Source of the DNA: Candidatus Micrarchaeota archaeon
Lineage (GTDB): Archaea; Micrarchaeota; Micrarchaeia; Micrarchaeales; CABMGC01
Direction of reading: 5' to 3'
NCBI GenBank assembly: GCA_021790305.1
Contig: JAJYED010000003.1
Location: 1-60,514 of the forward strand
DNA: 60,514 bases
Made by a program: the position numbers and the translations under genes. The stretch's first letter is position 1. Every line of letters starts with the position of its first letter. Shown piece after piece: positions 25,672 to 42,525 of this stretch. The notes beneath the pieces were generated by a model. It ran no database searches. It worked only from the letters and a program-made list of their open reading frames with translations, and had not been told where the DNA came from.

Positions 25672-25688
25672 TCTCTCACATTATTTTG

Positions 25689-26532: not shown

Positions 26533-26629
26533 AACTGCCTTTTGGAGAGGATTTATATTTTTATTCGTTGCTATCTTTATGGTAATTTCGCTTCTTATCC
26601 GTGATTAAGACGATTAAACGAGTGATATA

Positions 26630-27226: not shown

Positions 27227-27242
27227 ATTATAAGGGATTTTT

Positions 27243-27431: not shown

Positions 27432-28121
27432 TTATTTCTCCTTCTTTTCCTCTCTTGCATATCTCTCTTCCACTGATACGTTCTTCACATCATCCATCAG
27501 TCTGAATATCGCACTTACCATGGCTGACTTGTTTATGAAGTAGTCTGCGTCCTTGTTTACCTTGTCTCCGAATACTACCTTTACTGCTGCTCTCTCGCTC
27601 TGTGCCTCATCTGGCTTGAGCGCGTACATTTCAGCTATCGAGTCTACCTTCTCTTTCTCGGAATCCAGCTTCTTCACTACAGTAATGTCGTATACCAGCT
27701 TCTCTCCTGCAAGCGGATGGTTTGCATCTACTACCACTCTCGCTGAGTTGACGCTCTTTACAGTTACTGCAGTACCGTCTATGTTCACGCGCATGCCAGG
27801 AACCGGGTTTATATCACGCTCCCTGAAATCCGATAGCTTCATGACCCGTACAAGATCCTCGCTCCGCTCTCCGAAGGCATCCTTAGGCTCTATCTCTACG
27901 GTCTTCTGCTGGCTTACCGTCATACCCTTTACCGCATCCTCTACGCCCTTGATTGCGTTGTTCTTGCCTATCACTATCAGCTGCGGGCCGTATCTGCCCT
28001 CTTCTTCGAATACACCTTCTTCCTTTGCTCTCTTCTCCATTGTAGTATAGACTATGCTCTTGTCTGACGCTCTGCGTGCAGTATAGTCTATAGTTACAAA
28101 ATCTCCGTTTGTAAACGGCAT
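27432..28121 (-). CDS. FKBP-type peptidyl-prolyl cis-trans isomerase (long archaeal type with insert-in-flap domain)
   Basis: GDFVTIDYTAR..., VVDANHPLAGEKLVYDITVVK. Confidence 0.85.
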   Translation of the reverse strand: MPFTNGDFVTIDYTARRASDKSIVYTTMEKRAKEEGVFEEEGRYGPQLIVIGKNNAIKGVEDAVKGMTVSQQKTVEIEPKDAFGERSEDLVRVMKLSDFRERDINPVPGMRVNIDGTAVTVKSVNSARVVVDANHPLAGEKLVYDITVVKKLDSEKEKVDSIAEMYALKPDEAQSERAAVKVVFGDKVNKDADYFINKSAMVSAIFRLMDDVKNVSVEERYAREEKKEK

Positions 28122-28185
28122 AAAATCACACTACTATTATATGATTCATATTTAAAAGGTATTGGCATAATATGCAATAGATTAC

Positions 28186-28791
28186 ATGGACAGGAAAAAG
28201 ATGATTGAATTTATAGGAGCACTGTTCGTAGCGGTCATATTCTTGACATCGTATGCCGCTTTCTCGGGCAACAGCTCTAGAAATACTACAAGCACCTCCA
28301 GCACTGTTGCCACATATTATGCAGTGGGCAGCACGAATGCAGCCATAACGGGATATAACAGTACCTTATTTGTTAACGTAAGCTGCAATGGAACTCTTCA
28401 GAACCAGACAGTTGATAAGATAAATGCAGTTGCCACGCAGCTGGAGAACAACGGCTCCGTACTGACTTATTCATCTTCTGGAAACAGCTTCCAGATAGGC
28501 CCGCAGAATATGAATTCCAAGAAGATATATGATTACATTTATACAAAGCTTGACTCCAACAGCACGAACTGCACCGTATTCAGCACAACTGCAACTGTGG
28601 AGCTTCCGGGCCTCATACAGATGGACATCCAGGGGCAGAGCATAACGGCAAATGTGCCTTACAGCGTTGCTTTGCAGCAGATTAGCCTGAAGCTGAACCA
28701 GTCGATGCCTTCTTCGCTTCCGCTAAGGGTAGCTGCACTTGTGACTGCTAACGGAACTGTATATGGCAGTCCTTCAATCACCAGGGAGTAA
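28186..28791 (+). CDS. N-terminally membrane-anchored extracellular protein, sequon-rich, unknown function
   Basis: N-terminal KKMIEFIGALFVAVIFLTSYAAF hydrophobic helix. I count 11 N-x-S/T sequons in 201 aa. Confidence 0.5.
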   Translation: MDRKKMIEFIGALFVAVIFLTSYAAFSGNSSRNTTSTSSTVATYYAVGSTNAAITGYNSTLFVNVSCNGTLQNQTVDKINAVATQLENNGSVLTYSSSGNSFQIGPQNMNSKKIYDYIYTKLDSNSTNCTVFSTTATVELPGLIQMDIQGQSITANVPYSVALQQISLKLNQSMPSSLPLRVAALVTANGTVYGSPSITRE

Positions 28792-28792
28792 G

Positions 28793-30502
28793 ATGGATGA
28801 CTTATCACGTGCGGTAAGGAAGTATGCTCTGAAGAATGCAGTGGAGCACGGAAGCGCACGTGAGTCAACGGTGCTTGCCAAGGTCCTCTCCCTGGATCCT
28901 GAGCTGAAGAAGGATATGAAGGCGCTTGCAATGCAGGTAGCGTCTGTAGTGAAGGAGATAAACGCAATGGACAAAGGCTCATTGCAGAAAGCTTATTCCG
29001 AATACGAGGAAGAATTTGAGAAGGAGCATTCTGAGAAAGCTGCAAAGAGCGCATCACACAACTTTTATGTGGAAGGGGCAGTAGAAGGAAATTTCAAGAC
29101 AAGGTTTGCGCCTGAACCCAGCGGTTATATGCACATAGGCCATGCAAAAGCCGCCTTCATAGAGATGGAACTTGCAAGGGTATACAAGGGCAGCGTAAGC
29201 CTCTATTTCGATGATACTAATCCTGCAAAGGAGAGGCAGGAGTTTGTTGACGCTTTGAAGAAGGATTCAAAATGGCTCGGGCTCTCTTTTTCAGACGAGT
29301 ATTACGCAAGCGATAACATAGAATATGAATACAAGTGTGCAGAGAAGCTGATAAAGAAAGGTCATGCGTATGTCTGCTTCTGCAATGCTGACACTATCGG
29401 GGAGAAGAGAAGCGAGGGCAAAGGGTGCGGACACAGGAACCAGACCGAAGATGCGAACCTCAGTTTCTGGAAGAATATGATAAAGGGAGAGTATGATGAG
29501 AATCAGGTATCGCTGAGGTTCAAGGGGGATATGCAGGCGCTTAACACTGTAATGAGAGACCCGGTACTGTTCAGGATAAAGAAGGATATTCACTACAGGC
29601 AGGGAGGCACGTATGTAGCGTGGCCTTCTTACGATTTCAATACTCCGATAGTCGATTCCATTAAGGAAGTAACGCATGCTGCAAGGAGCAAGGAGTATGA
29701 GTTGAGGGATGAGCTCTACTATAAGCTATTGGACCTTCTTGAGATGAGGAAGCCGAGGATAATAGAGTTCTCAAGGTTCGAGATAATCAACAATATGACA
29801 AGCAAGAGGAATACCAACAAGCTCATTGAGGATGGATTTGTCTCAGGATATGATGATCCCAGGCTCGTAACCATATCTGCTCTCCGCAAGAGAGGGATAA
29901 GGCCTGAGGCTATACGTGATTTTGTCCTTAGGTCAGGAATGAGCAAGTCTGAGAGCAGGTCAAGCATGGAGGAGCTCCTTGCATTAAACAGAAGGATTAT
30001 TGACGATAGTTCGAAGAGGCTTTTCTTTGTAAGAGAACCGGTCAGGCTTGAGGTCGCCGGTGTTGATAAGATTGATATTAAACTTCCCCTGCATCCCAAT
30101 ATTGATATGGGCTACAGAGAGTATAGATGCGGCAGTGCTTATTACATAGATAGTAATGATGCCGATGCGCTTAAAGCTGGAGATATGGCGAGACTGAAAG
30201 GAGCCTTCAACATAAAGATAACAGAAGTAAATGATGAGCTGATAAAAGGAGAGTACAAAGGAACGGAGAAGATTGACGCACTTATAATTCAGTGGGTTTC
30301 CGAGGGCAATTTCATGCAGTCAGACCTAACTTTGATAGGAGATCTGCTCAAGGATGATGAATTCAATAGGAACAGCATGATAAAGGTAAACGGGTATGCG
30401 GAGGGCTATGCATCCGGACTTAAGGACAATGATACGGTTCAGTTCGAGAGAATAGGCTTCTTCAAGTTCGACGCTAAGGAGAGAACCTTCTTTTCCTTAT
30501 AA
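28793..30502 (+). CDS. gltX: Glutamyl-tRNA synthetase (archaeal/eukaryotic type)
   Basis: HIGH-type motif PSGYMHIGHAKAA and KMSKS-type MTSKR. Start taken at ATG 28793 (MDDLSRAV), directly after the upstream stop. Confidence 0.9.
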   Translation: MDDLSRAVRKYALKNAVEHGSARESTVLAKVLSLDPELKKDMKALAMQVASVVKEINAMDKGSLQKAYSEYEEEFEKEHSEKAAKSASHNFYVEGAVEGNFKTRFAPEPSGYMHIGHAKAAFIEMELARVYKGSVSLYFDDTNPAKERQEFVDALKKDSKWLGLSFSDEYYASDNIEYEYKCAEKLIKKGHAYVCFCNADTIGEKRSEGKGCGHRNQTEDANLSFWKNMIKGEYDENQVSLRFKGDMQALNTVMRDPVLFRIKKDIHYRQGGTYVAWPSYDFNTPIVDSIKEVTHAARSKEYELRDELYYKLLDLLEMRKPRIIEFSRFEIINNMTSKRNTNKLIEDGFVSGYDDPRLVTISALRKRGIRPEAIRDFVLRSGMSKSESRSSMEELLALNRRIIDDSSKRLFFVREPVRLEVAGVDKIDIKLPLHPNIDMGYREYRCGSAYYIDSNDADALKAGDMARLKGAFNIKITEVNDELIKGEYKGTEKIDALIIQWVSEGNFMQSDLTLIGDLLKDDEFNRNSMIKVNGYAEGYASGLKDNDTVQFERIGFFKFDAKERTFFSL

Positions 30503-30542
30503 TTCAGGAAAAGTTTTTAGTTTTTAACGAATATGCTATATT

Positions 30543-31202
30543 ATGGAACTTGATAACATAGTGTGGCTTGGACATGCCTCTTTTGCCATAAGGGCAGACA
30601 GCAAGTTAATATATATAGATCCTTTCAGGCTCGGTTCTTTCACTGAGCATGCTGATATAATACTGGTCACGCATCCGCATTTCGACCACTTCAGCGTAGA
30701 GGAGATAAATAAGATAGCAAAGGATGATACGGAGATATTTGTACCTAAGGATTCGATGCAGGAAGTGAAAGTAGGTAAAGTTTCAGGTGTTGAACCGTTA
30801 AAGAGCTACTCTTCTAACGGGATAAGATTCACGACACTTCCTGCTTACAATAACCAGAAGGAACGAGTGCAGTTCCATCCCAGGTCAAACGGGTGGGTAA
30901 GCTACATGATAGAGGTTAATGGGATTAAGATCTTCCATCCTGGGGATACAGACCATGTAAAAGAGATGGACACTCTTGATGTTGATGTTGCCATGCTGCC
31001 AATAGGAGGCACATACACAATGGACGTATATCAGGCTATAGAAGCCGCTAAGAGGATAAAGGCAAAGACATTCGTACCTATGCACTATAAAGCCGTCCTT
31101 GGAAAGGAAAAAGCGGCTGAAGCCGAGCAGAGATTCCTTAAGAACGTGAAGAACAGCGTGCTGCTGAAAGAAGCTACTGAACCTTACTACTCTTTTGGCT
31201 GA
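30543..31202 (+). CDS. Metallo-beta-lactamase-fold hydrolase
   Basis: VTHPHFDH metal-binding motif, HPGDTDH. Confidence 0.75.
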   Translation: MELDNIVWLGHASFAIRADSKLIYIDPFRLGSFTEHADIILVTHPHFDHFSVEEINKIAKDDTEIFVPKDSMQEVKVGKVSGVEPLKSYSSNGIRFTTLPAYNNQKERVQFHPRSNGWVSYMIEVNGIKIFHPGDTDHVKEMDTLDVDVAMLPIGGTYTMDVYQAIEAAKRIKAKTFVPMHYKAVLGKEKAAEAEQRFLKNVKNSVLLKEATEPYYSFG

Positions 31203-31971
31203 CAAGAGGCAGTATCTCCCTTGCAGTTGATAATATTTCTTCAGGACTCATTGCAAAGAGCCTCGATTCGTTATTCCTGAGCTTTTCGGACATGCTTGAT
31301 GCATCATCTTTGGTAATCCCTAGGGAATGCCTTGAGTCTATGAATGCGTTTCGCAGTCTCTTCTTCTTGTGCTGCATCAGCAGGTTTATGATATGCGATT
31401 CTTCCCCGGTTATCTCGGTCTTTAATGGCTTTAGATATATTACTGCAGAATCTACCCGCGGTATAGGAGTGAAATTACCCTTCTTTACGTCGAGTATTTT
31501 TGTCACGCGGACGCACAGATGCGACATTACACTAAGCCGCGAGTAATCCTTTGTGCCGGGCTCTGCAAGCATATGCTCTACGAACTCTTTCTGCAGACAC
31601 AGAACTGCCTGCAGCCTGTTCTCTATAAGGAACTCGATGACCTTGCTGGACAGGTTGTATGGAACGTTTGCAACCATGATGTCTATCTTGTATTTTTCAA
31701 GCACACTGTTACCGAGTTTGAAGAAATCCGCATTTATCAGTTCAAGGTTTTTATCCTTCATTGTTGCAGCGAGTATTTTGTATAAGGTTTCATCCTTTTC
31801 CACTGCCAGTACGAACTTTGCCTTTTCACAAAGTTTCTTTGTCAGTATTCCCCTTCCCGGCCCCAGCTCTATTACATTCTTCCCCTCAGCATGAACTGCT
31901 TCTATCTCGGCTATGTGTTCATTCACAAGGAATACCTGTCCCAGTTTCTTTTTTGGCCTTGGACCCAGCAT
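31174..31971 (-). CDS. ksgA: 16S/18S rRNA dimethyladenosine transferase (KsgA/Dim1)
   Basis: LGQVFLVN, SAM-binding IELGPGRGILT, VANVPYNLSS. 29-bp convergent overlap with the MBL gene. Confidence 0.9.
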   Translation of the reverse strand: MLGPRPKKKLGQVFLVNEHIAEIEAVHAEGKNVIELGPGRGILTKKLCEKAKFVLAVEKDETLYKILAATMKDKNLELINADFFKLGNSVLEKYKIDIMVANVPYNLSSKVIEFLIENRLQAVLCLQKEFVEHMLAEPGTKDYSRLSVMSHLCVRVTKILDVKKGNFTPIPRVDSAVIYLKPLKTEITGEESHIINLLMQHKKKRLRNAFIDSRHSLGITKDDASSMSEKLRNNESRLFAMSPEEILSTAREILPLVSQKSSKVQ

Positions 31972-32035
31972 TTGAAAACCGATTAAAGCAGTAATATAAA
32001 CTGTTATTATTAATTAATAAGTGTGCGGTAATGAA

Positions 32036-33355
32036 ATGAAGGGCCAATCTGCTATAGAATTCATAACAGTATATGGGTTTATGCTGATAATTGCTGCGCT
32101 TTTCATAGCTCTGATAGTTTTGTTCGCCTTCTCGGCCCAGGATTCGATACAGACCTCGCAATGCAGCGGCTACTCTGGTTTATATTGCACTAGCGCGCAG
32201 GTAGCGTATAATGTCGTTGCCAGAAATTCCTTAGTATACTTAGCGCTTGACAGCGAACAGAGCGCTCCGGTAAATATCATCGGGATAAATGTCATAATAA
32301 ATAATGCGACTTATGCAGGAACCTGTAATCCGACTATTGCTGCTCCTGCAGAGCGTGTAAACTGCACAATAGGAGTTAACTCCATAACTAGGAATGGACA
32401 GCAGATAGTCGGTTCTTATACCATAAACGGGCAGTACTGCAACTCTCCTGTGTACAACGTCTCAGTAGAAGCATGCGCATACCAGAATGTGACGTATACG
32501 GGCTTCTTTTCCACATATGTTACCAACCACCTTAGCTTAGGTTATACGAATTATATCGTCCCTGCAAACGTAGTTGGAGTAGTAAGCGGAAGCTTCTGTT
32601 GCGTTGAAGGAATCGCGTTTGCACCTTCAGGAAGCTACGCATATGCTACCGAATTTAACACAAATAGGCTGGCAATAATAAACACGGCAACGAACTCGTT
32701 AAAAAATACCATAAGTCCTGGCTTAAACGTCCCTTATGGTGTTGCCTTTGTTCCTTCCGGAGATTATGCATATGTAGCTAACTTGAATTTTGGAGGTTTT
32801 CCTTATATAAGCGTTGTAGATACTGCAACAGAGACCCAGACAGGGAAGATTAATATCGAGGGAGTTAACCTGCTGCTGCTTGAAGGGGTGGCCGTTTCGC
32901 CTAACGGAGCTAATGCATGGTTAAGCGGATATGGAAATGTTTTAGAGCTCAATACTGCAACCAATACGATGACCCAGACTAGCACAGACATATCTAGTAG
33001 TGGATTAGTGGTTAGCCCTGATGGGCAGTATGTCTACGTAATAGACCTGGGCACGGAAGATATACTGAAGATAAGCACCACGACTGGAGATGTCGTAAGT
33101 TCTATCGGTTCTAGTATGATAGACAATCCCAGTGGTATCGCAATAACCCCTGATGGAAAGTATTTGTATCTGGCAAATACTGACTCAAATCAAGTATTAA
33201 TAATAAGTACAGCGACAGGCAATGTTATCAGTACGATTAACAATGGTTTCAGTCACCCTTCAGGAATAGCCATTGCGCCTGGAGGCTCCTACGGATATGT
33301 AGGTAATCCCGGATCTAGCAATGTGGTTATAATAGATACAGGGGGCTATAATTAG
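32036..33355 (+). CDS. Type IV pilin-like (class III signal peptide) protein fused to a YVTN beta-propeller
   Basis: N-terminus MKG/QSAIEFITVYGFMLIIAALFIALIVLF, with Glu at +5 after the predicted Gly cleavage site. The C-terminal half has blades such as IAFAPSGSYAYATEFNTNRLAIINTATN, VAFVPSGDYAYVANL, IAITPDGKYLYLANTDSNQVLIISTATG, IAIAPGGSYGYVGNPGSSNVVIID. Confidence 0.75.
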   Translation: MKGQSAIEFITVYGFMLIIAALFIALIVLFAFSAQDSIQTSQCSGYSGLYCTSAQVAYNVVARNSLVYLALDSEQSAPVNIIGINVIINNATYAGTCNPTIAAPAERVNCTIGVNSITRNGQQIVGSYTINGQYCNSPVYNVSVEACAYQNVTYTGFFSTYVTNHLSLGYTNYIVPANVVGVVSGSFCCVEGIAFAPSGSYAYATEFNTNRLAIINTATNSLKNTISPGLNVPYGVAFVPSGDYAYVANLNFGGFPYISVVDTATETQTGKINIEGVNLLLLEGVAVSPNGANAWLSGYGNVLELNTATNTMTQTSTDISSSGLVVSPDGQYVYVIDLGTEDILKISTTTGDVVSSIGSSMIDNPSGIAITPDGKYLYLANTDSNQVLIISTATGNVISTINNGFSHPSGIAIAPGGSYGYVGNPGSSNVVIIDTGGYN

Positions 33356-33391
33356 TACTTAGAGGTACTTAGCTGCAATTTCTAGACAGCT

Positions 33392-34060
33392 TTACCTTGA
33401 CATACTGGAGATTATGCTGCGGTACGTGGATCTTTTCTTTTCTATAGTCTTTATCCTGTTTGTCCTGCGGCTTGCGATCCTCTTAAGCTTTACCGCTTTC
33501 TTTTTCCTGAAGAACTTGAATAATCCTGATTCTGTCACCTTTATCTCGTAATTCACCCTGCTCATGAAATCGGAATGCTTCTGGAGCAGATTGTCATAAT
33601 AGACCGCCTTCCTGTTTATGTCTGATGAGAAATTGTCATAGTATTTTGCTATTGAGCTTACGCTTCGTGATTTGCAGGTTAGACCTATCAGGAGTAGAAT
33701 TGCAAGGTCATTGCCGAATACAGAGGAATAACCTACTGCAAGAGCCTCTATATGTTTCAGGTAGTCTTTCGTATCGTTTCTGGACATTGTCTTTGTATTT
33801 GCTATCACATTCGGCATGCAGAATATTTCGTAATCGTAGTTGTTCAATATGCCTTTAACATTTGAGATATGAGTGTCGAGCTGGTCCTTCACCTCCTTGC
33901 TTTGCTGCCTTCCTGTTCCCAGTTCAGTCTCCCATCTTCTCCTTATTATATCCTTGAGAGCCGCTTTTTCCAGGCTCACCTTCTCCTGAGGCAGATTAAC
34001 GCTAGTTCCTTCTCTGATCGCCAAACAACCACTTGCCCTCGTACCCTTAAAACGAAACAA
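33392..34060 (-). CDS. Hypothetical protein with very basic C-terminus, immediately downstream of the TPR-AAA gene
   Basis: ORF only, with no recognisable motif. C-terminal FRKKKAVKLKRIASRRTNRIKTIEKKRSTYR. The ORF-track start is TTG, so the start is uncertain. Confidence 0.4.
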   Translation of the reverse strand: MFRFKGTRASGCLAIREGTSVNLPQEKVSLEKAALKDIIRRRWETELGTGRQQSKEVKDQLDTHISNVKGILNNYDYEIFCMPNVIANTKTMSRNDTKDYLKHIEALAVGYSSVFGNDLAILLLIGLTCKSRSVSSIAKYYDNFSSDINRKAVYYDNLLQKHSDFMSRVNYEIKVTESGLFKFFRKKKAVKLKRIASRRTNRIKTIEKKRSTYRSIISSMSR

Positions 34061-34097
34061 ACTCTCAAGTTAATATTTTAAATATATGTGTAACGGT

Positions 34098-36677
34098 TCA
34101 GAACAGGTATATTGCGAACTGCCTGATGAATCTCTTGATTCCCTGATAAAATGGATTGGAATTCCTCTTCACGTCCTTGACCAACGGGCTGTATTTGCGC
34201 TTCTCTTCTGCAGAGAGCTGGCCTTCTTTTACTATCTCCTGCTTCTTGCCATCTACTATCTGCGTCTCGGTCTTTGATATTATCTCTTTCTTCATCATCG
34301 CATACCATTCATCAAGAGAATTCCCCTTCCTCTTAATCATGCTGATGAAATCCGACATCTGTATCTTTCTCCTCTTGCCTGTCCTATCCTCTTCTGCAGC
34401 GGGAATCAACGCTGCCTTGTCGCATATCTCTTCTATATCTGCCTGCGAGAAACCCATAGTAGCCCTTGCCAGCCTGTCATAGGACATGTGACCCAGAGGC
34501 ATGTTCCTTGTATTATAGATGAACGCGCTCTTCCTTGTCTTGTAATCTGGAGGAGGTATGTATATGGATTCGCCGAATCTCTTGCTCCTCTTGAGCGCAG
34601 GGTCTATGTCCCAAGGCTGGTTTGTTGCGCCTATGACGAATATCCCTTCGGGATTCTTCTCCACTCCGTCCATCTCCTGTAGGAACTGGTTGACCGCCAT
34701 GCGCATGAAGCTCTGGTTCTCACCACCGCCTCCGCCCGATCTCTTCGTCCCAAGGGCATCAAGCTCGTCAAAGAATATTACTACAGGAGTATTTGCCCTC
34801 GCCTGTTCGAATATCGCATGCATGTTTTTCTCCGTGTTTCCTGCATACATGTCCACTATCTCGTTAATCGCTGCGATTATGACCTTCGATTTTGTCTCTC
34901 CCCCTATCGCGTTCACGAAATATGTGTTATGCACAAAGAATTCGTTTGCTACAAAGTTATGCGTGTCTTCAACTGTTAAGTCATATACATATTCAGGAGC
35001 AGGCAATTTTTCTATTTTCACTATCTCTTCGTAGACTACCCTGTTTCCCCCTTTCTTCTTAACCTTTCCCCAATGATTCTTGCGTTTAGTCAAAACTCCT
35101 GCTTTACTGCCAAACATTCCTATCTCATCTATGAATATGTCTACGTCTCTGCTTCTTGATACGATGAGTGACCAGTTTGATTCGGTTTTGTGGTATAGAT
35201 TCGATAATATACCGAAACGCAAAAGCAGGTGCTGCACATCTCTTACGAGCCGTTCCGAATTGCTCGAATATCCCACAATTCTTGTTCTCTTGATGCCGTA
35301 GATTCCTGTCTGGGGTTTTTTCTCTTCAAACCATCCGTCTCCGGTAAACAGCCTATTCAGGAAGAGCGCAAGAAGATGCTTTGGAAGCGTATATATTATG
35401 TCAGGAACTTTCTTCTCATACGAACTAGTGTAGGATAGGCCGGCATTGTCAAGGAACTGCTGCATTTTGTTTCTTTCCTGACCGCCAGTATGGTTTCCGT
35501 TTACATACATAGTCATTATTCTTCCATCCTTAGACTGGATGTTTACATGCAATACAGAATCAAACTGCCTTACCGAGGATTGAAAGTCTTCAAGAACCTC
35601 TATGTCACCATTTGTGAATGCAGCTTTCCCCTGCGTAAGTCCGCCTTCAGTTATGAAGTATGCAAGAAGCTTTACTTCGCACTCTCTCATCGTTGTGGAT
35701 CCGAAGATAGGCATATCTCGTGGAACCCCTATAAATTCCCCTTCATCAAGCTTGCTGGCCTCCATCCATTCTCCCTTTTTGGTGAGCAGAGGGTGTTCAG
35801 GAGTGCATTCGAGCACTCTGTTCCTGTTCGTAGTTATCTTCAGCAAAGGCTTGCCTTCAAGCTTCCACCATCCTGAGACCTTCCTCACAGCGAGTTTGTG
35901 CTGCGGGGTAAGAGTAAGTATATTAGGTTCCCTGTTTTCAACGACCTCCTTTATTGTAAGGTACCTGCCGTCAGGAAGAAGTACGCGGCTGTCTGCGCTT
36001 ATGCACTTCCCGCAACCTGGCGGACCATAGAATATAACGCCGAGACCCAGCTTCTTACCGTATGCCTTGAGCAGCTCAGGCTTCTTTATGGCAAGAACTA
36101 TGTTCTCGTATATCAGCTTCTTCTCCTTCTTCATTCCGACTACGTCGTCGAAATTTATCTTCGACTGGTGCCACTTCACCTTCTTTATCTGCCCTTCCTC
36201 CACTACAGTGGATTTTGAACCGGTTGAGTTGTCTTCCTGGTTAGGGCTGTCATTGACAAGGACCTTGTCCTTCTTATCTTCAAGGGCTTCAAGCCTTGTC
36301 TTTGCCTGCTCATAGTCAGGATTCTTCGACAGTGCCTTTTCATACCACTCTTTGGCTCCCTGATAATCCTTCTGGTACTCCGCTATTATGCCCATTATGT
36401 AAGGTGCATCGTGGCTGTCCGGCTCAAGTTCCAATACCTTCTCGGCATCGCGGAGCGCATCTTCATACTTGTTAAGTATGGCATATGCCAGCGCCCTGTT
36501 GAAGTATGCGCTTGCATACTCCGGGTCCTGCTTTATCGCCTTTGAATACTGTTCTATCGCCTCTTCAAATTCATTGTTCTCGAAGAGGGTTCCTGCCTTT
36601 TTGTAAGTCTCCTTGGCAGCAGGGCTTGGAACATGCTTGCTTGTAGTAGAAGTATCTGTTGAGTCGCCGGCTGCCAT
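34098..36677 (-). CDS. TPR-repeat AAA ATPase (Vps4/katanin-like AAA module) interrupted by an intein in the Walker A motif
   Basis: Three N-terminal TPRs (AIEQYSKAIKQDPEYASAYFNRALAY...). Walker A GPPGCGK|..|T split by the intein. Walker B VVIFFDELD. GATNQPWDIDPALKRSKRFGESIYIPPPD. Start taken at ATG 36677. Confidence 0.85.
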   Translation of the reverse strand: MAAGDSTDTSTTSKHVPSPAAKETYKKAGTLFENNEFEEAIEQYSKAIKQDPEYASAYFNRALAYAILNKYEDALRDAEKVLELEPDSHDAPYIMGIIAEYQKDYQGAKEWYEKALSKNPDYEQAKTRLEALEDKKDKVLVNDSPNQEDNSTGSKSTVVEEGQIKKVKWHQSKINFDDVVGMKKEKKLIYENIVLAIKKPELLKAYGKKLGLGVIFYGPPGCGKCISADSRVLLPDGRYLTIKEVVENREPNILTLTPQHKLAVRKVSGWWKLEGKPLLKITTNRNRVLECTPEHPLLTKKGEWMEASKLDEGEFIGVPRDMPIFGSTTMRECEVKLLAYFITEGGLTQGKAAFTNGDIEVLEDFQSSVRQFDSVLHVNIQSKDGRIMTMYVNGNHTGGQERNKMQQFLDNAGLSYTSSYEKKVPDIIYTLPKHLLALFLNRLFTGDGWFEEKKPQTGIYGIKRTRIVGYSSNSERLVRDVQHLLLRFGILSNLYHKTESNWSLIVSRSRDVDIFIDEIGMFGSKAGVLTKRKNHWGKVKKKGGNRVVYEEIVKIEKLPAPEYVYDLTVEDTHNFVANEFFVHNTYFVNAIGGETKSKVIIAAINEIVDMYAGNTEKNMHAIFEQARANTPVVIFFDELDALGTKRSGGGGGENQSFMRMAVNQFLQEMDGVEKNPEGIFVIGATNQPWDIDPALKRSKRFGESIYIPPPDYKTRKSAFIYNTRNMPLGHMSYDRLARATMGFSQADIEEICDKAALIPAAEEDRTGKRRKIQMSDFISMIKRKGNSLDEWYAMMKKEIISKTETQIVDGKKQEIVKEGQLSAEEKRKYSPLVKDVKRNSNPFYQGIKRFIRQFAIYLF
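34926..36005 (-). mobile_element. Intein (360 aa) with LAGLIDADG homing-endonuclease domain
   Basis: Block A CISADSRVLLPDG (Cys1 codon 36003-36005). Block B TPEH. LAGLIDADG motifs LLAYFITEGG and LFLNRLFTGDGW. Blocks F/G VYDLTVEDTHNFVANEFFVHN (Asn codon 34926-34928) followed by +1 Thr. Removal restores GPPGCGKT. Confidence 0.9.
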
Positions 36678-36736
36678 AAATATCACTTTTAGATATAAGG
36701 GTATCCAGATTTATATTTGTTGGTTATAACACGCAG

Positions 36737-37147
36737 TCATATCCTGTCAAGGAATATGTTTAATTCCTTGTCAACCGCGACTATGCCAGGATTCTCCCTT
36801 GGCACATTCTTCAATGAATAGCTCTTGAATTTGCCCAGGAGCACCATAGCCTCTGAATTAAGCTCCTTCAGCTTGCTCTCCTTGACCTTGTAATTGCCGT
36901 TCAACTGGTTCACTATTAGTTTGCTGTCTGAGAACAGCTCTATGTCATTTTCTTCTCCCATTCTGTCTATAACCTTGCGCAGTGCGTTAATCACGGCATT
37001 ATACTCCGCCACATTGTTAGTCGCTATCCCGTTGTATTCCGTATTCTTGTATATCAGCTTTCCATGTGCATCTGAGATCGAGTATCCGGAAGCGCTCTTT
37101 CCCGGATTTCCTCTCGCTGCCCCATCCGTATATATTCTTAAAAACAT
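36737..37147 (-). CDS. rnhA: Ribonuclease HI
   Basis: IYTDGAARGNPGKSASGY, NNVAEYNAVINAL, LFSDSKLIVNQL (DEDD catalytic contexts). Confidence 0.85.
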   Translation of the reverse strand: MFLRIYTDGAARGNPGKSASGYSISDAHGKLIYKNTEYNGIATNNVAEYNAVINALRKVIDRMGEENDIELFSDSKLIVNQLNGNYKVKESKLKELNSEAMVLLGKFKSYSLKNVPRENPGIVAVDKELNIFLDRI

Positions 37148-37217
37148 GAAAACACGTATTGATACTTCACGGCATAATATTAAATATTTATTTTGCTATC
37201 TAATCACAGGTGTTTAA

Positions 37218-37631
37218 ATGGGATTATTTGACCGGTTTGGAAAGAGAAACGTCGCAGATGATTTGGAAAAGCAGCTTCCTTATGCTATGAAAACGGAGTT
37301 TGTGCCGTATAAACTTAGGGCTAATGGCAGGAGTTCGTCATCGCTTTTTGTAAGCGTAAAGAACCTTACCAAGGAGCCGGTAATGAGCTCGGTTATTATA
37401 GAGGTGCCGCAGAAGCTGAATCTTGACGAGATAGGGATGGCAAAGCAGAAAGAGGTAAGGATAGGCATGCTTGCCCCTAACGAGGAAAAACGCGCCACGA
37501 TAGACATATACTCCGGACCTGCAACTGACAAGGGGGATTACACGCTTTCAGTCACTGCATTCGTTCATTACAGAGATTATGGCCATGTGCTCAATTCCAT
37601 GAAGAAGCGCGTCATGATATCAGCGATCTGA
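37218..37631 (+). CDS. Hypothetical protein with SepF-like N-terminal amphipathic peptide (MGLFDRFGKR)
   Basis: ORF with no known catalytic motifs. The body looks beta-rich. Confidence 0.4.
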   Translation: MGLFDRFGKRNVADDLEKQLPYAMKTEFVPYKLRANGRSSSSLFVSVKNLTKEPVMSSVIIEVPQKLNLDEIGMAKQKEVRIGMLAPNEEKRATIDIYSGPATDKGDYTLSVTAFVHYRDYGHVLNSMKKRVMISAI

Positions 37632-37937
37632 TCCGTTCTGCTGTTCCTGCTTCTGTACAGGATTTGAAGCCGATTCCAGCTTTTGCTTAATCACAATTAT
37701 GGCTTTGGCGACCTCCATCCCTTTCTCGGTAAGGAAGACCCTCTTTATCCTTCCGTGCTTCTCGCTCGCCATTATGCCCATGCGCTCGCATCTGTTTACA
37801 AAATTAGAGGTGTGTATATATGTTACGCCTGTTGCCTTTGCAAGATCCGTTATATGCCATTCCTTCTCTTCGATAAGTACGGTTAGCAGCTTTACCTGCT
37901 TCTCTTTGAATAGGAGCATTCCCAACGAATCTTTCAT
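37620..37937 (-). CDS. Small winged-helix transcriptional regulator
   Basis: KLLTVLIEEKEWHITDLAKATGVTYIHTSNFVNRCERMGIMASEKHGRIKRVFLTEKG. Confidence 0.65.
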   Translation of the reverse strand: MKDSLGMLLFKEKQVKLLTVLIEEKEWHITDLAKATGVTYIHTSNFVNRCERMGIMASEKHGRIKRVFLTEKGMEVAKAIIVIKQKLESASNPVQKQEQQNGSDR

Positions 37938-37949
37938 ATCCTCAGCTTT

Positions 37950-38438
37950 TCAAGAACTGGTCACTTTGGCCGCTATTTTTCCGTATATGAGGTTCTGGAA
38001 GCCTGTACGCGTGTCCGTGTAATTGAGCGCTATTGAACCTGTAAATAAGCTGCTGAGCTGGCCGCTGAAAGGGGTATTTCCTTGATAGCAGGTAGTCTTG
38101 AATGTACTGTTCTCACCTGCATTCATCGGCACAGGCGGAGAGTATTTCTGTATGTGTGCGGTAGTCTGGTTTGAGTTGCACCCTACCTGGGTTATATTTA
38201 TCGGGTTTATGTTTGTGTACTCGATATTAAGCACTATGAGACCGTTGCTGTAGAAGTAATCGCTCGTGCATGTGAAACCTGCCGGGAGGGTGCATAATGG
38301 AGAGACATAATTTGAAGGGGTAAAGACATTAAGTTCGTAAAGAGCAACTAGCACTACCCCTATGATCAGAATTGCCCATCCGTAGGTCATCAGGTATTCC
38401 ATAGCGCTCTGGAGCTTATGCGTTCCTGTTTTAAGCAT
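37950..38438 (-). CDS. Archaeal type IV pilin-like protein (class III signal peptide)
   Basis: MLKTGTHKL/QSAMEYLMTYGWAILIIGVVLVALYEL, with Glu at +5 and then a hydrophobic helix. The rest is a small sequon-containing globular domain. Confidence 0.7.
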   Translation of the reverse strand: MLKTGTHKLQSAMEYLMTYGWAILIIGVVLVALYELNVFTPSNYVSPLCTLPAGFTCTSDYFYSNGLIVLNIEYTNINPINITQVGCNSNQTTAHIQKYSPPVPMNAGENSTFKTTCYQGNTPFSGQLSSLFTGSIALNYTDTRTGFQNLIYGKIAAKVTSS

Positions 38439-38509
38439 ACTTTCATTGCTACTTAAAGGATTATAAAGAAGTTACTACATACATGTGAATCGTATTACGG
38501 TAGTTTAAC

Positions 38510-40252
38510 ATGGAGATACTGGGTTATGCGCTTACCGCTGTCTATATGGTTTTGTTTGTAGGGCTCTTGTCAGCGGTAGGAATTTATAGAAAGGATATTT
38601 ACAAGGCACTTAAAGGCAAGGTTACAAAACGTTCACTTATAGCGCTTTTATTCATACTTATCTTCTTCGTGTCATTCCTTCTTATGTTTGTACATCCTGC
38701 AGAGCAGCTGTACTTTGACGAGAACATATACCAGGGCATAGCCTTAAACATACTGAAGCACGGCAACGCGCTATGGTGCCAGTACGGAAGCGCGTATCTT
38801 AACCAGTGCGGAGCGAGTGCGGTGTATCATGACCCTGTAGAATGGTCATTCTACATAGCAATGGCTTTCGGCATATTCGGCATAGGTACTGCGACTGCTT
38901 ATGGTATGCAGCTGCTAATAGGTGCATTGCTTATCGTTTTCACCTTCCTGCTGGGCTCGGTAATGAAGGGAGAAAAGACTGGCATACTGTCTGCGCTTGC
39001 CATGTCGGTGATGCCAGAATTGATAATATGGTCAAGAGCACAGGCGGTTCCTGACCTGGCACTTGCATCTTTTGCAACTCTTGCGTTTTTCTTCTTCATA
39101 GTTTTTATGGAGAATAAGAAGAGCGCTACTTTGCTACCGTTCCTGCTCTCACTGGGCATAGCTGTTTATGCCAGGACGGAGGGTTCCCTTCTGATACCCC
39201 TGTTCATTTTGTTATACTTCATATATGGAGATTCTTCGATAAAAGAGAACTTCAAAAACAATATGAGATGGCTCAGGAACCTGATAAACAATGATGAAGT
39301 GTCCCTTCTTTATATCCTGTTACTTGCAATACTGCTCGTTCCCCAGGCGTATTACATATCGGGTCAGCTTTCCAATCCCCAGTTCGGGCAGGGTAAGAGC
39401 GGCCTTTTCTCACTGACAAGCTTTGAGACAAACGCACCGATAAATGTGAATTATCTGTTTGGAGCTTTTGATACAAAAGGCTACTATCCTGCGGCTTTCC
39501 CTGTAGAGATAACGCTTCTTGCTGCGATAGGTACAGCTGTTGCTATTGCGACGTCTATAAATGATAGGAAGAACATGTCAATTGTGCTTGCGTTGGGGTT
39601 ATGGTTCCTTGCATACTTTTTCTTCTACTCGTTCTTCTATGCAGGAGCAGCAACATACGGAGTCGATTCGAGAATGATGCTTCAGCTGCATCCGCAGCTC
39701 GTCATACTCTCTGCAATAGGGATAGTTGAGATATCCGGTTTGTTGGCAATGGCAGGAAGTAGAGTGGCTAAGAGAAGACGCAACCGTTCGCTTTTGAATA
39801 AGCGCAATTTATTGATTGCGATTCCGTATGCAGCATTCTTCATAGTGATATTTTTCATATTCGCCCAGTTCTTCCCGATTGTCACCATGCCTCCTTCAAG
39901 CGCACCGCAGCAGAGTGTCATACTGCCTGCAAGCAATTTCATAAACAGCAATTACAGTGCAGTTCCGAGCAACTGCCTTGTCTTCAGCTTCACTCCTGAT
40001 ATGTGGTATGAGAATGGAAGATCCGCAGCCCAGATAGGCTATCTGCAGTCCGACAGCAGCAACTTCACCAATTTCACAAAGAGCTACAGGTGTTTTGTAC
40101 TGGATTATGGTTACTGGTGCATCGTTCCGCCTTATGACAATACCACATGCCCCACTTATCTGAAAACGTATAATACAAGCGTCCTTGCAACGAGGAGCAT
40201 AAGCGGAGCGGCAGATAATGTAAGCTTCTATCTTCTGAGAAATTATTCCTGA
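38510..40252 (+). CDS. Polytopic GT-C-fold membrane glycosyltransferase (PMT_2/ArnT-like)
   Basis: More than 10 predicted TM helices. First-loop acidic motif YFDENIYQGIALNILKHGN. No WWDYG, so not STT3/AglB. Confidence 0.55.
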   Translation: MEILGYALTAVYMVLFVGLLSAVGIYRKDIYKALKGKVTKRSLIALLFILIFFVSFLLMFVHPAEQLYFDENIYQGIALNILKHGNALWCQYGSAYLNQCGASAVYHDPVEWSFYIAMAFGIFGIGTATAYGMQLLIGALLIVFTFLLGSVMKGEKTGILSALAMSVMPELIIWSRAQAVPDLALASFATLAFFFFIVFMENKKSATLLPFLLSLGIAVYARTEGSLLIPLFILLYFIYGDSSIKENFKNNMRWLRNLINNDEVSLLYILLLAILLVPQAYYISGQLSNPQFGQGKSGLFSLTSFETNAPINVNYLFGAFDTKGYYPAAFPVEITLLAAIGTAVAIATSINDRKNMSIVLALGLWFLAYFFFYSFFYAGAATYGVDSRMMLQLHPQLVILSAIGIVEISGLLAMAGSRVAKRRRNRSLLNKRNLLIAIPYAAFFIVIFFIFAQFFPIVTMPPSSAPQQSVILPASNFINSNYSAVPSNCLVFSFTPDMWYENGRSAAQIGYLQSDSSNFTNFTKSYRCFVLDYGYWCIVPPYDNTTCPTYLKTYNTSVLATRSISGAADNVSFYLLRNYS

Positions 40253-41073
40253 ACAGCTCTCCTTTTCCTCATAATCCGTTGCCTTAGTATCAGCAGGGCT
40301 ATTATGATGATTATTGCGATTATCGCTGCCTGCACCAGATATCCCTTCAACTGGTTCTGCGCAGAAGAGTATGGAGTAATCTTTATGATGTATACTGAAG
40401 AATAGGTCGTACCTTTTGAGTAGTATTCCAAAGCTACTGCACCTGAATAGGTATTGTTCTGGCTTGGAAGGTTTGAATAGAGCGTAAAGTTGTGATACTG
40501 GTATGGATTGATAGCAAAACTGGATATCCTGCTTCCATTCCTTTCAAGCTCAGGAGGGAGTATGAGGGTGATATTGCCGTTTACGGTATTTGAAGAGAAG
40601 CTGTATATGCTCCCGTTAACCTTTGCGGTTGTCGAGTTTATATCCTGTACCGTTACATTGCTTATGCCCAGGAGCGAGAGATGTGCACCGTGGTTCTGCA
40701 CCACGCATGGGAATACCACCGTAAATAACTGGGTGCCTTGCTGATACGTTACAAGGAAGTAGTAAGCAAAAGAACCAGTGTTGTTTCCTATGCTGGAGTT
40801 TATATCGAAAAGAGCAGCTTTATCAGGGCTTATCTGTGATGTAGAGTACGTACCGGTAAGCTTATCTGAAAACGCATAGTACGATTGCAGGACAACTGAT
40901 GATGCGCTCTCTGTTCCGCTGTTGGCTATAGAGAAATTTATACTGCCGTTTTGGTTAAGATTTGACCGGCACGTTCCGGTAAGTGTGACTGTTCCTGATG
41001 CATATGCAGTGCATACAAGCATGCTGATAAGCAAAATAGGCATGAATCTGTTCATCTCTTCGCCTTGCTGCAT
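40243..41073 (-). CDS. Secreted, C-terminally TM-anchored sequon-rich protein downstream of the pilus ATPase
   Basis: Signal peptide MNRFMPILLISMLVCTAYASG (likely start ATG 41055). C-terminal AAIIAIIIIIALLILRQRIMRKRR. Confidence 0.5.
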   Translation of the reverse strand: MQQGEEMNRFMPILLISMLVCTAYASGTVTLTGTCRSNLNQNGSINFSIANSGTESASSVVLQSYYAFSDKLTGTYSTSQISPDKAALFDINSSIGNNTGSFAYYFLVTYQQGTQLFTVVFPCVVQNHGAHLSLLGISNVTVQDINSTTAKVNGSIYSFSSNTVNGNITLILPPELERNGSRISSFAINPYQYHNFTLYSNLPSQNNTYSGAVALEYYSKGTTYSSVYIIKITPYSSAQNQLKGYLVQAAIIAIIIIIALLILRQRIMRKRRAVQE

Positions 41074-42386
41074 TACTGCAAAACTCCCATGTTGCCAAGA
41101 CCTATCTTTTGCATCGCTCTGCCCGGATTGTCATAGTACTCTTTGCAGAATTCATTTATGCCGCGAAGATCCCTTATTCCAAGTTTGTTGAGAGTTTCCA
41201 GTATCTTTGCCCTCCTGTTCTCCTCTGCTATTATCTCATTGGGGGTAAATCCTGACAGTCTGGCAAGTGTATCCCTGTAGGTTATGCTTGGCAGAATCGC
41301 AGAGCCCTTGTGTGTCCTGTAGTCATACAAGTAAAGATCTGAGAGCAGAACCTTTGTCTCTATTCCAGATACCTCCGATATCTGGGTAACCCTTCTTTCG
41401 AAGCCCTTGTCTCCTGCAATCTGGGATATGACCATCAACGCGTCTATCAGAGTTATCGCACTGCTGCTTATGCTCATCGGGGGCTGCTCCAGCCTGTTGA
41501 CTATATCCCTGGTAGTGCTCGCGTGTATAGTGCCGAAGACTATCTTTCCTATCGTCATTGCAGATATGAGGTCCTTGGCTTCCGCACCTCTCACCTCTCC
41601 TATGATAATCATGTCAGGTCTCATCCTGAGAACGTTCTTCAGAAGATCCTCAAGGGTCAGGTCGAGGTTTGTCTCCAGCCTTACGCAGTTCTCCTGCGTC
41701 TCCGTATTGAGTTCATATGTATCTTCTATCACTACCACTCTTTCCTCAGGCCTGAAGAAGCTGAACATAGCGTTAAGCAGAGTAGTCTTTCCGCTTCCGG
41801 GAGTCCCGCCAAGGAGCAGGTTTGCAGGCCTTACCTTCAATCCCTCCGAGTACAGCCATATCCTTGCTGCCATGTTATAGTTAAGCTCGCCGAAGTTTAT
41901 CAGGTCTATCACGCTGAATGCATGCTTCTTGAAATTTCTTATCGTGACGCTGGCTCCCCTTGGTGATTTTACCACGTTTGCCCTTGAACCGTTCGGCAGG
42001 TGAATGTCGTATATGTGCTTGTTTGCATCATTTGCTGTTGCGTACATGTTTAGCTTCTTTACGAACCTGACGAGCTCCTGCGGTGTCTTTACCTTCTCTT
42101 GCACCTTCATCTCTCCTTCCGAGCCCTTGTTTATGAATATGTTATCGGTGCTGTTTATCATGATGTCTTCTACCTGCTCGTCAAGCAGATAGTTATTGAT
42201 GGGATAGAAATCGTGCGTGTCCTTTGCTATCCTTGTTATTATCTCCTGGTCTGAAGATGGGTTGAAGGTCTTGGCTATTTTCTCTATGGCACTGTAAAGC
42301 GATGCTTCCCCGTATATGTCCGACATCTTGCCTTCAAGCTCCTCGAATATCTTCTCTTCAAAATCGTAGAATTCTTCGTCGTCCAT
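41073..42386 (-). CDS. Type II/IV secretion-system ATPase (archaeal PilB/FlaI/VirB11 family)
   Basis: Walker A LLGGTPGSGKTTLLNA, Asp box VVVIEDTYEL, RMRPDMIIIGEVRGAEA. Confidence 0.85.
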   Translation of the reverse strand: MDDEEFYDFEEKIFEELEGKMSDIYGEASLYSAIEKIAKTFNPSSDQEIITRIAKDTHDFYPINNYLLDEQVEDIMINSTDNIFINKGSEGEMKVQEKVKTPQELVRFVKKLNMYATANDANKHIYDIHLPNGSRANVVKSPRGASVTIRNFKKHAFSVIDLINFGELNYNMAARIWLYSEGLKVRPANLLLGGTPGSGKTTLLNAMFSFFRPEERVVVIEDTYELNTETQENCVRLETNLDLTLEDLLKNVLRMRPDMIIIGEVRGAEAKDLISAMTIGKIVFGTIHASTTRDIVNRLEQPPMSISSSAITLIDALMVISQIAGDKGFERRVTQISEVSGIETKVLLSDLYLYDYRTHKGSAILPSITYRDTLARLSGFTPNEIIAEENRRAKILETLNKLGIRDLRGINEFCKEYYDNPGRAMQKIGLGNMGVLQ

Positions 42387-42525
42387 GCCAACCAGCAGAT
42401 GATGTTTACTGGTAATAATTCAAAGAGTAAGTTTAATAATCTGCATTCGTCCTGGATGCAGATTGGCGTATAATGCGGTAAGTCAATCTTTTTATTGTTT
42501 TAGAGCTAACGATTATTGTAATTGG

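Follow-up and report, generated by a model that had tools for sequence, protein, structure and literature searches.

Intein-interrupted ATPase gene and its boundaries

The window, that is, the whole analysed stretch of 60,514 nt from a Candidatus Micrarchaeota archaeon from acid mine drainage, contains a gene of a TPR-AAA ATPase, a protein conserved phylum-wide. In the window this gene is interrupted by an intein. The locus comprises the following features:

36737..37147, minus strand: RNase HI gene, directly upstream of the precursor gene, a syntenic neighbour outside the intein (PF00075 RNase_H annotation in relatives)
34098..36686, minus strand: intein-interrupted TPR-AAA ATPase precursor gene (ORF list, 862 aa from GTG; Pfam TPR x3, AAA, AAA_lid_3, Intein_splicing, LAGLIDADG_3)
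36006..36686, minus strand: N-extein, with the TPR domain (~36279..36620), a disordered linker and the start of the AAA domain, the last seven residues being GPPGCGK (36006..36026) (Pfam; AlphaFold model of an intein-free orthologue)
34926..36005, minus strand: intein, 360 aa, Cys1 ... His359-Asn360 (Pfam and NCBIfam; exact 1080-bp indel relative to the syntenic locus L001; AlphaFold; Foldseek)
35691..36005, minus strand: N-terminal half of the HINT domain, with block A CISADSRVLLPDG (35967..36005) and block B VLECTPEHPLLT (35781..35816); model strands in residues 1–95
35055..35690, minus strand: LAGLIDADG homing-endonuclease domain (LAGLIDADG_3, E=6.6e-19, Pfam on the insert alone; model; dN/dS)
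35640..35672, minus strand: LAGLIDADG motif 1, KLLAYFITEGG, with E120
35331..35369, minus strand: LAGLIDADG motif 2, ALFLNRLFTGDGW, with LFLNRLFTGD223GW
34926..35054, minus strand: C-terminal part of the HINT domain, with blocks F/G VYDLTVEDTHNFVANEFFVHN (34926..34988); intein_Cterm above cut-off
34098..34925, minus strand: C-extein, beginning with the +1 Thr (34923..34925) that completes Walker A (motif positions; invariance in 62 intein-free orthologues; model)
34827..34853, minus strand: pore loop of the C-extein, DMYAGNTEK
34758..34784, minus strand: Walker B of the C-extein, VVIFFDELD
34611..34637, minus strand: sensor 1 of the C-extein
34545..34604, minus strand: arginine-finger region of the C-extein, DPALKRSKRFGESIYIPPPD
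34410..34454, minus strand: lid of the C-extein, followed by a C-terminal beta-hairpin and helices

The first-pass annotation had located a LAGLIDADG intein precisely within Walker A of a TPR-AAA ATPase at 34926..36005, which is correct to the base, and the motifs it quoted (TPEH, KLLAYFITEGG, LFLNRLFTGDGW and VYDLTVEDTHNFVANEFFVHN) are all present at verified coordinates. The insert of 1080 bp (residues 228–587 in the 862-aa numbering) lies between K and T of Walker A, GPPGCGK^T, with the caret here and below marking the junction. It begins with CISADSRVLLPDG directly after the N-extein GVIFYGPPGCGK and terminates with ...FFVHN, followed by the C-extein TYFVNAIGGETK. The 862-aa frame proposed initially does exist from GTG, but homologues begin with MAA(G/S)D, which corresponds to an ATG (36675..36677) three codons further downstream; the precursor therefore probably has 859 aa, with the intein at residues 225–584. 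The calculated masses are 97.6 kDa for the precursor, 41.2 kDa for the intein and 56.5 kDa for the spliced product (~57 kDa in the first-pass annotation). The joined-extein junction of the predicted spliced product would read ...FYGPPGCGKTYFVNAIGGE, the bridging stretch being ...GPPGCGK-TYFVNAIGGE... Since trypsin cleaves precisely at this GK^T position, a tryptic digest would not reveal the junction peptide named in the first-pass annotation. In the AlphaFold model of an intein-free orthologue the TPR helices occupy residues 19–139, and the linker (137–163) is modelled with low confidence. The RNase HI gene adjoins the ATPase gene in 51 out of 80 GTDB loci.

Splicing domain

The insert and the joined exteins were searched separately, as had been suggested at the outset, and the intein and LAGLIDADG models matched the insert, while the exteins yielded a full-length AAA match. 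With the insert alone, Pfam Intein_splicing is found at E=6.8e-30, and both NCBIfam models score well above their cut-offs (intein_Nterm, 50 bits vs 24.5; intein_Cterm, 31 bits vs 15.6); at the sequence level, these motif and profile matches are far beyond chance.

Residue conservation was counted in 29 allelic inteins. The block A nucleophile Cys1 is Cys in all 29, as is block B, T68-P-E-H71, invariant, with T68 unchanged even across 60 distant inteins. In blocks F/G, VYDLTV..THNF..FFVHN^T, residues D342, H349, H359, N360 and the +1 Thr are likewise retained in 29/29 alleles, and Cys67 of the intein is also invariant. The AlphaFold model of the intein (pLDDT 90.9, pTM 0.90) has the HINT fold, and its top Foldseek matches are the TliVMA, PhoVMA, PI-PfuI and PI-SceI inteins. 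In the PDB, inteins with an endonuclease match best (TM 0.75), and Mtu RecA and Ssp/Npu DnaB mini-inteins are also among the matches. With Cys1, TxxH, His-Asn followed by Thr, the HINT fold and a removable insertion, the element is a class 1 intein. Scanning with an HMM built from 60 inteins identified no second intein elsewhere in the window.

Homing endonuclease domain

The central part of the intein is a two-motif single-chain LAGLIDADG endonuclease by its motifs, fold and sporadic distribution, with DNA cleavage itself being predicted. In the model, helices 108–119 and 209–223 are each followed by beta-sheets, and, judged by the order of secondary-structure elements, the alpha-beta-beta-alpha-beta-beta-alpha core fold occurs twice; endonucleases matched by Foldseek are I-Tsp061I, I-OnuI and I-SmaMI. 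The first catalytic position, E120, is acidic in 29/29 alleles (26 Glu and 3 Asp), and D223 is conserved in 27/29, both residues being intact in the window. As the second catalytic Asp is no longer present in two of the 29 alleles, decay does occur within this intein family. Comparison of the window with L004 gives dN/dS of 0.047 for the endonuclease domain and 0.076 for the splicing domain; by this measure, the endonuclease is under purifying selection.

Host ATPase

Removal of the insert extends the Pfam AAA match from profile positions 12–130 (109 bits) to 1–130 (130 bits), with PF00004 found at E=1.1e-37 in the spliced host sequence. The host has Walker A and B, sensor 1, two arginine fingers, an aromatic pore loop and a lid, as expected for the classical clade of AAA proteins, and all 62 intein-free orthologues compared share D277/E278, N326, R337/R340 and M250-Y251-A252-G253 without change. 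Its identity across Candidatus Micrarchaeota is 64–99%.

The second region of homology had been likened in the first-pass annotation to the Vps4/katanin clade. A specific assignment to the Vps4/katanin/spastin clade (CdvC) is not supported, as CdvC scores far below its cut-off (189 bits, cut-off 650), FtsH (187 bits) and CDC48 (173 bits) score about equally, and neither an MIT nor a Vps4_C domain is found in the host by Pfam even at E<=1, the N-terminal domain being composed of three TPR repeats. Neither these models nor PAN (166 bits) reach their cut-offs. The best PDB matches by both sequence and fold are to p97/CDC48 D2, with FtsH and Vps4 close behind; the fold search does not discriminate between families, and with no NCBIfam model at cut-off no named AAA family could be assigned. 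The host is a generic classical-clade AAA protein with a TPR N-terminal domain.

Empty sites and phylogenetic distribution

That excision restores GPPGCGKT, as had been claimed, is borne out by a syntenic relative (P0001/L001, ~85% nucleotide identity) lacking exactly these 1080 bp and reading GPPGCGKTYFVNAIGGETK. The two loci are collinear over 21.5 kb, with one clean 1080-bp indel in the ATPase gene, and the DNA at the empty site of L001 is ...CCAGGTTGCGGGAAA^ACTTATTTCGTGAATGCA... Forty-nine empty alleles yield the candidate homing site ...GGNTGCGGRAAR^ACNTAYTTYGT... Wobble positions near the site show only small differences between the occupied alleles and these empty ones, and no clear resistant variant indicating homing-site immunity was seen in this comparison.

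Among the 120 closest protein clusters, 28 have this same intein at the same site, all of them with GPPG[CN]GK^C...HN^T, and the other 92, the intein-free alleles that the earlier reading proposed to look for, have GPPG.GKT. The intein is present in 15 out of 80 GTDB species representatives, all carriers belonging to Candidatus Micrarchaeota, and about 77–81% of lineages are without it. Mapping its presence and absence on a host tree of 121 tips requires at least 25 gains or losses.

In Logan contigs from four metagenomes, the depth for the window's own strain stays level over the intein. Some joints, for example 34771->36006 in X4, give a hint of relatives lacking the intein, but at 85% likeness this signal is confounded by other Micrarchaeota species. 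Three acid-mine metatranscriptomes from one study had no contig covering the ATPase gene.

Evolution of the intein and its host

Judging by the following comparisons, the histories of the intein and the host are incongruent. Pairwise identities of hosts and inteins correlate weakly (r=0.26); P0066 and P0070 have exteins 91% identical and inteins 63% identical; for the window vs L003, dS is 0.85 in the exteins and 2.0 or saturated in the intein. GC3 also differs (0.47 in the intein vs 0.58–0.60 in the exteins). Similar inteins are found in the window, L004, L051 and L053, which group together in one clade. Nested within the window's own clade is P0001, which has no intein; another member, L003, has an intein that is much more divergent. 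Both cases point to recent gain, loss or replacement of the intein. A putative co-conversion signal in the flanks is weak, the correlation with intein similarity being 0.41, 0.37 and 0.27 with growing distance.

Extein dN/dS in intein-containing alleles is 0.019–0.026, and the same against the intein-free allele. Exteins of intein-bearing alleles are thus strongly constrained, and therefore the host protein must still be made.

Relation to known inteins

Many ATPases are well known to harbour P-loop inteins (PMC4760082; PMC8966425), and inteins hosted by CDC48 ATPases, as well as spread between P-loops of unrelated proteins, have been reported (PMC10710043). By sequence, the closest non-allelic relatives are DnaB-b (P-loop) inteins, with 30–44% identity and 168 bits for NCBIfam PRK07773. 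They are likewise inserted directly behind the GK of Walker A, Thr or Ser being the +1 residue (ARPSMGK^T), and many have a LAGLIDADG endonuclease; however, their host is a bacterial replicative helicase of the RecA fold, rather than an archaeal classical AAA protein, and some of them, such as the class 3 intein Msm DnaBi1, lack Cys1 (PMC6195587), whereas the Micrarchaeota intein is of class 1. By structure, the best matches are VMA-b inteins TliVMA and PhoVMA from the archaeal A/V-ATPase subunit A (PDB 7qsu, 7qss, 7qst; Foldseek E=2e-22, TM 0.75), which also reside in a P-loop and have the same HINT and LAGLIDADG architecture (PMC8966425), but are only 16–19% identical, have another host and contain accessory domains, while the Micrarchaeota model has none extra.

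Inteins at MCM site a and RFC-S site a are similar in having an archaeal AAA+ host and a P-loop insertion (PMC4760082), and the PhoCDC21-1 (MCM) intein matches by both sequence and fold; their hosts, however, are replication proteins from other AAA+ clades, not a classical-clade PF00004 protein with a TPR N-terminal domain. A classical-clade host is shared with CDC48-ATPase inteins (Anaeramoeba, with orthologous-site relatives in prokaryotes; PMC10710043), although that ATPase belongs to a different family from the TPR-AAA protein, the likeness being drawn by description. The RadA intein of Pyrococcus horikoshii, as cited in PMC6195587, is likewise inserted in the P-loop and keeps the ATPase non-functional until it is spliced out; conditional splicing has been demonstrated for this mini-intein.

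Out of 138 nearest intein relatives with a mapped N-terminal junction, 119 have the GK^ insertion pattern, matching the P-loop-to-P-loop jumps described in PMC10710043. By its sequence relationships, the Micrarchaeota intein belongs to a large GK^T/S clan hopping between P-loops of unrelated NTPases, with DnaB foremost among the relatives. This membership supports the published idea of P-loop-to-P-loop transfer without extending it: P-loop inteins are already known, and this is an ordinary example of the type. The novelty of the host type was overstated in the first-pass annotation, since P-loop and CDC48-type inteins have been described and the same host and site occur in at least 28 public protein clusters.

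The literature search found no paper linking an intein to a Micrarchaeota AAA ATPase, and no match to the phrase "CDC48 intein". InBase reportedly has an entry for a CDC48 intein of Methanopyrus kandleri.

Proposed mechanism and alternative explanations

Taken together, the data argue with high confidence for a class 1 intein with a nested double-motif LAGLIDADG endonuclease at K^T of Walker A, predicted both to splice and to home; most likely, it is splicing-competent and still mobile.

Walker A interrupted by 360 residues cannot bind nucleotide, and the 97.6-kDa precursor, its P-loop being split by the intein, would therefore be unable to bind ATP. Based on the conserved residues and the established intein pathway, Cys1 would perform an N-S acyl shift at the Lys-Cys bond, aided by Thr68 and His71 of block B; the hydroxyl of the +1 Thr would attack the thioester; Asn360 would cyclise, aided by His359 and by Asp342 and His349 of block F; and an O-N shift would produce the 56.5-kDa ATPase with intact GPPGCGKT and release the 41-kDa intein. 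Either this released intein or the precursor may then cut intein-less alleles site-specifically at the candidate homing site, with repair from an intein-containing copy placing the intein in the cut allele.

An unlikely alternative is that splicing is intact and the endonuclease is inactive in the window lineage, the intein persisting vertically since its imprecise loss would destroy an important gene. There is a precedent in PhoVMA, a similarly sized P-loop intein, whose endonuclease in its native form is inactive despite an intact fold and needed engineering for activity (PMC8966425), and both the loss of D223 in two family members and the clade of similar inteins formed by the window, L004, L051 and L053 are consistent with it. 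On the other hand, E120 and D223 are intact in the window, the endonuclease domain is about as constrained as the splicing domain, and the nested intein-free P0001 and the divergent intein of L003 favour recent turnover.

Rather improbable is a broader reading, in which the intein would be more than a parasite: its extreme patchiness would reflect unusually frequent homologous DNA exchange among Micrarchaeota, or else the intein would be a redox- or acid-sensitive switch acting via Cys(-3)/Cys1 on the TPR-AAA unfoldase. If the former were true, the intein would be a tracer of gene flow in DPANN, among ultra-small, host-dependent lineages with up to ~30% divergence between their host proteins; if the latter, splicing would control a phylum-wide, possibly essential, unfoldase.

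Co-option as a conditional-splicing switch, e.g., a redox trap formed by Cys(-3) and Cys1 (C-G-K-C, CxxC) in the oxidising acid-mine habitat, is in itself very doubtful. The window allele does have Cys at both positions, Cys67 provides an additional invariant cysteine, and conditional splicing is documented for P-loop RadA inteins (PMC6195587) and for redox-sensitive DnaB inteins (PMC4513877; PMC5790916). However, Cys(-3) is polymorphic among hosts independently of the intein, being present in 15 out of 29 intein-containing and 48 out of 92 intein-free sequences (Fisher p=1), and, as most lineages manage without the intein, a selfish element fits better than a needed regulator. That the insert is a remnant unable to splice, or else a permanent part of the protein, the gene being a pseudogene or encoding a 98-kDa protein with an extra domain, is hardly credible given the invariance of all catalytic residues, strong purifying selection on the exteins of intein-bearing alleles, most orthologues without the insert, and a split P-loop incompatible with nucleotide binding.

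The class 1 intein, most likely still mobile, adds the TPR-AAA ATPase host family to the targets of P-loop inteins. With its clean empty counterpart it forms a naturally occurring allele pair on which homing could be studied in DPANN archaea, a group not yet genetically tractable; the cellular function of the TPR-AAA host is arguably a more interesting question than the intein. For annotation, the gene should be described as a single intein-containing AAA ATPase and not a 98-kDa multidomain protein; one of the 28 intein-bearing clusters is already annotated by JGI as "AAA+-type ATPase/intein/homing endonuclease".

Intein Boundaries and Family Evidence

Residues 228–587 of an 862-aa ORF (counted from its GTG) coincide exactly with a 1080-bp insert, CISADSRVLLPDG...VYDLTVEDTHNFVANEFFVHN, preceded by GVIFYGPPGCGK and followed by TYFVNAIGGETK. 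The coordinates are:

34098..36686, minus strand, ORF of the intein-bearing ATPase precursor
34926..36005, minus strand, intein

Homologues of the precursor start at an ATG three codons in, hence its length is probably 859 aa. The insert alone matches Intein_splicing (E=6.8e-30) and LAGLIDADG_3 (E=6.6e-19) in Pfam, and both the N-terminal and C-terminal intein models of NCBIfam above their cut-offs; NCBIfam matches also include models of intein-containing DnaB, IF-2, GyrA, RNR, RecA, and RFC. The first-pass annotation of an intein at these positions agrees with the exact coordinates and the family-model matches, and is correct and well delimited.

The intein was modeled with AlphaFold from an alignment of 60 inteins (pLDDT 90.9, pTM 0.90). 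Beta-rich N- and C-terminal HINT halves lie on either side of an endonuclease core with a two-fold alpha/beta arrangement; the LAGLIDADG motifs form the two long helices of this core, and no accessory domain is apparent in the model. The top Foldseek matches in PDB are endonuclease-containing inteins, TliVMA (E=2e-22, TM 0.75), PhoVMA, PI-PfuI, PI-TkoII, and PI-SceI, followed by free-standing LAGLIDADG enzymes and mini-inteins. TliVMA and PhoVMA are likewise P-loop inteins, at the VMA-b site (PMC8966425).

Intein-Free Orthologues

Searches with the conceptually spliced ATPase yielded a tightly conserved family (64–99% identity), with sources labeled Candidatus Micrarchaeota, Micrarchaeia, or Micrarchaeaceae. 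Among the 120 best clusters, 92 comprise proteins of approximately 490–530 aa with an uninterrupted Walker A, GPPG.GKT, and the other 28, proteins of 853–877 aa with an insert at the same position, GPPG[CN]GK↓C...HN↓T (arrows mark the insert boundaries). The inteins of these 28 clusters are all full-size (348–365 aa), and no mini-intein form is seen among them. A natural empty allele, P0001, is 96% identical to the window ATPase and reads GPPGCGKTYFVNAIGGETK at the site. Window positions 24233..46673 align collinearly with its contig, L001, at approximately 85% nucleotide identity, and within the gene the alignment is broken once, by a clean gap of 1080 bp that matches the predicted intein boundaries. 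With the insert removed, the Pfam AAA match becomes full-length. Thus, the earlier prediction that excision restores Walker A holds, and the intein-free alleles whose existence it had left to be checked are common in relatives.

Constraint on Exteins and Intein

In 29 allelic inteins Cys1, T-P-E-H of block B, D342 and H349 of block F, H359-N360 of block G, and the +1 Thr are invariant. The acidic residue of the first LAGLIDADG motif (position 120) is E or D in all 29, and that of the second (position 223), D in 27, the two exceptions being divergent or shortened inteins. By the Nei-Gojobori method, comparison of the window with L004, a locus of a relative, gives a dN/dS of 0.019 in the exteins, 0.076 in the splicing domain, and 0.047 in the endonuclease domain. 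Extein constraint is equal in intein-bearing and intein-free alleles (dN/dS 0.019–0.027); therefore, a functional host protein must be made, and splicing is strongly implied. Constraint on the endonuclease domain implies that its activity is recent or current.

Mobility

On a neighbor-joining tree of 121 host proteins the intein distribution requires at least 25 changes, and P0001, which lacks the intein, branches from within the group of the window protein and clusters P0002 and P0003. The intein directly abuts the C-extein in 15 of the 80 GTDB species-representative loci, and is absent from distant (37–52%) homologues among GTDB representatives, including those of Altiarchaeota. Pairwise identities of hosts and inteins are weakly correlated (Mantel r=0.26): clusters P0066 and P0070 have exteins 91% identical and inteins 63% identical, while the intein closest to that of P0066 (82%) resides in a host only 71% identical. 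Compared to L003, another relative, dS is 0.85 in the exteins, 2.0 in the splicing domain, and saturated in the endonuclease domain; for L004, extein and intein values are similar. GC3 is 0.47 in the intein, whereas the two exteins that flank it have 0.58–0.60. Taken together, the patchy presence, discordant identities and dS, and the GC3 difference are what a homing cycle leaves behind when invasion, replacement, and loss recur. In the flanks, a co-conversion gradient is only faintly visible.

The MAG YP1.bin29 (GTDB) contains both intein-free and intein-containing TPR-AAA copies (loci L047 and L073, contigs JAKASF010000002.1 and JAKASF010000028.1), whose C-exteins are 89.7% identical. The two copies could come from different strains mixed in the bin, be paralogues, or mark a population in the course of invasion.

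Related Inteins

When 1.84 billion representatives were scanned in full with HMMER, the allelic family (P0108, 66%) was the sole close match, the rest being at most 44% identical. Out of 138 nearest relatives with a mappable N-terminal junction, 119 are inserted directly after "GK", which places the window intein in a large P-loop GK↓T/S clan. A word-indexed search agreed with these results.

Hosts of related inteins include (arrow, junction)
DnaB, ARPSMGK↓T
AAA_24 proteins, GK↓S
IstB-like proteins, GK↓T
proteins of DPANN archaea, GKRGSGK↓SY
proteins with a ...KRGK↓T/S motif
dCTP deaminase, CVGK↓ST

Clustering of inteins in P-loops is documented (PMC4760082), and it has been proposed that they pass from one P-loop to another between unrelated proteins (PMC10710043).

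The Host ATPase

The spliced host (56.5 kDa) consists of three TPR repeats, a disordered linker, a classical AAA module, and a C-terminal beta-hairpin with helices; the AAA module has an invariant M-Y-A-G pore loop, Walker B (DE), sensor 1, and two arginines. We could not assign it to a named AAA family, as all NCBIfam scores (CdvC 189, FtsH 187, CDC48 173, PAN 166 bits) are far below cut-offs. Sequence and fold searches in PDB favor p97/CDC48 D2, with FtsH and Vps4 close behind, and Pfam finds no MIT or Vps4_C domain in the host. Given these scores and matches, the initial suggestion of a resemblance to the Vps4/katanin meiotic clade is not specifically supported. The protein may be a substrate-threading unfoldase or remodeller, recruited via its TPR domain. 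The neighboring gene upstream codes for RNase HI and is conserved in this position.

The type of the element, the class of its insertion site, and its behavior are all textbook. The suggested novelty of the host is overstated: in the literature searched we found no paper on the TPR-AAA family as an intein host, but many instances of the arrangement occur in public data, at least one of them automatically annotated as intein-containing, and CDC48-type AAA hosts have been reported (PMC10710043).

Genomic Surroundings

Over 6.8 kb the window shares 96.7% identity with locus L051, which belongs to MAG MAS1.bin53 (Candidatus Micrarchaeota), and metagenome runs with the window sequence come from acid mine drainage, tailings, and sediment. 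No tRNA genes and no Rfam families at the gathering threshold were detected in the whole 60.5-kb window. Other features are as follows:

6740..8593, ATP-dependent DNA ligase (housekeeping)
8590..9735, minus strand, Fic-like ORF
9736..10423, non-coding stretch
10424..14092, minus strand, 1222-aa giant ORF, lactonase/NHL-type beta-propeller repeats
28763..30502, class I Glu/Gln-tRNA synthetase (housekeeping)
32021..33355, plus strand, 444-aa ORF, lactonase/NHL-type beta-propeller repeats
33392..34060, minus strand, 222-aa ORF
37950..38438 (minus), 32021..33355 (plus), 41073..42386 (minus), signal-peptide proteins and T2SSE/PilB-type ATPase
42463..44265, succinate dehydrogenase flavoprotein (housekeeping)
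56463..60194, minus strand, 1243-aa giant ORF, lactonase/NHL-type beta-propeller repeats

The fast-evolving 222-aa ORF directly downstream of the ATPase gene has no Pfam match. Its identity is 98.6% in the conspecific L051 and 59–97% in close relatives, and in more distant loci it is 32–40% identical or undetectable; its position is kept, and it is detectable in 14 of 80 GTDB loci. Its product may act together with the ATPase.

The 1222-, 1243-, and 444-aa ORFs share a near-identical repeat unit, SFSPSGTYAYV(A/T)N...NNVVIINTATNTV, and probably encode cell-surface proteins; the N-terminus is hydrophobic in the 1222- and 444-aa ORFs, and the 1222-aa ORF has a C-terminal membrane anchor as well. 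Small proteins near the T2SSE/PilB-type ATPase have signal peptides of the archaeal class-III (type IV pilin-like) kind, QSAMEYLMTYGWAILI and QSAIEFITVYGFMLII, which suggests that the intein-bearing gene lies amid a locus for pili or adhesion.

The non-coding stretch between the Fic-like and 1222-aa surface-protein ORFs (approximately 690 bp, GC 18–26% vs. the window mean of 45%) has no Rfam match. It is packed with short AT-rich repeats, both direct and inverted, and may serve as an origin or in regulation.
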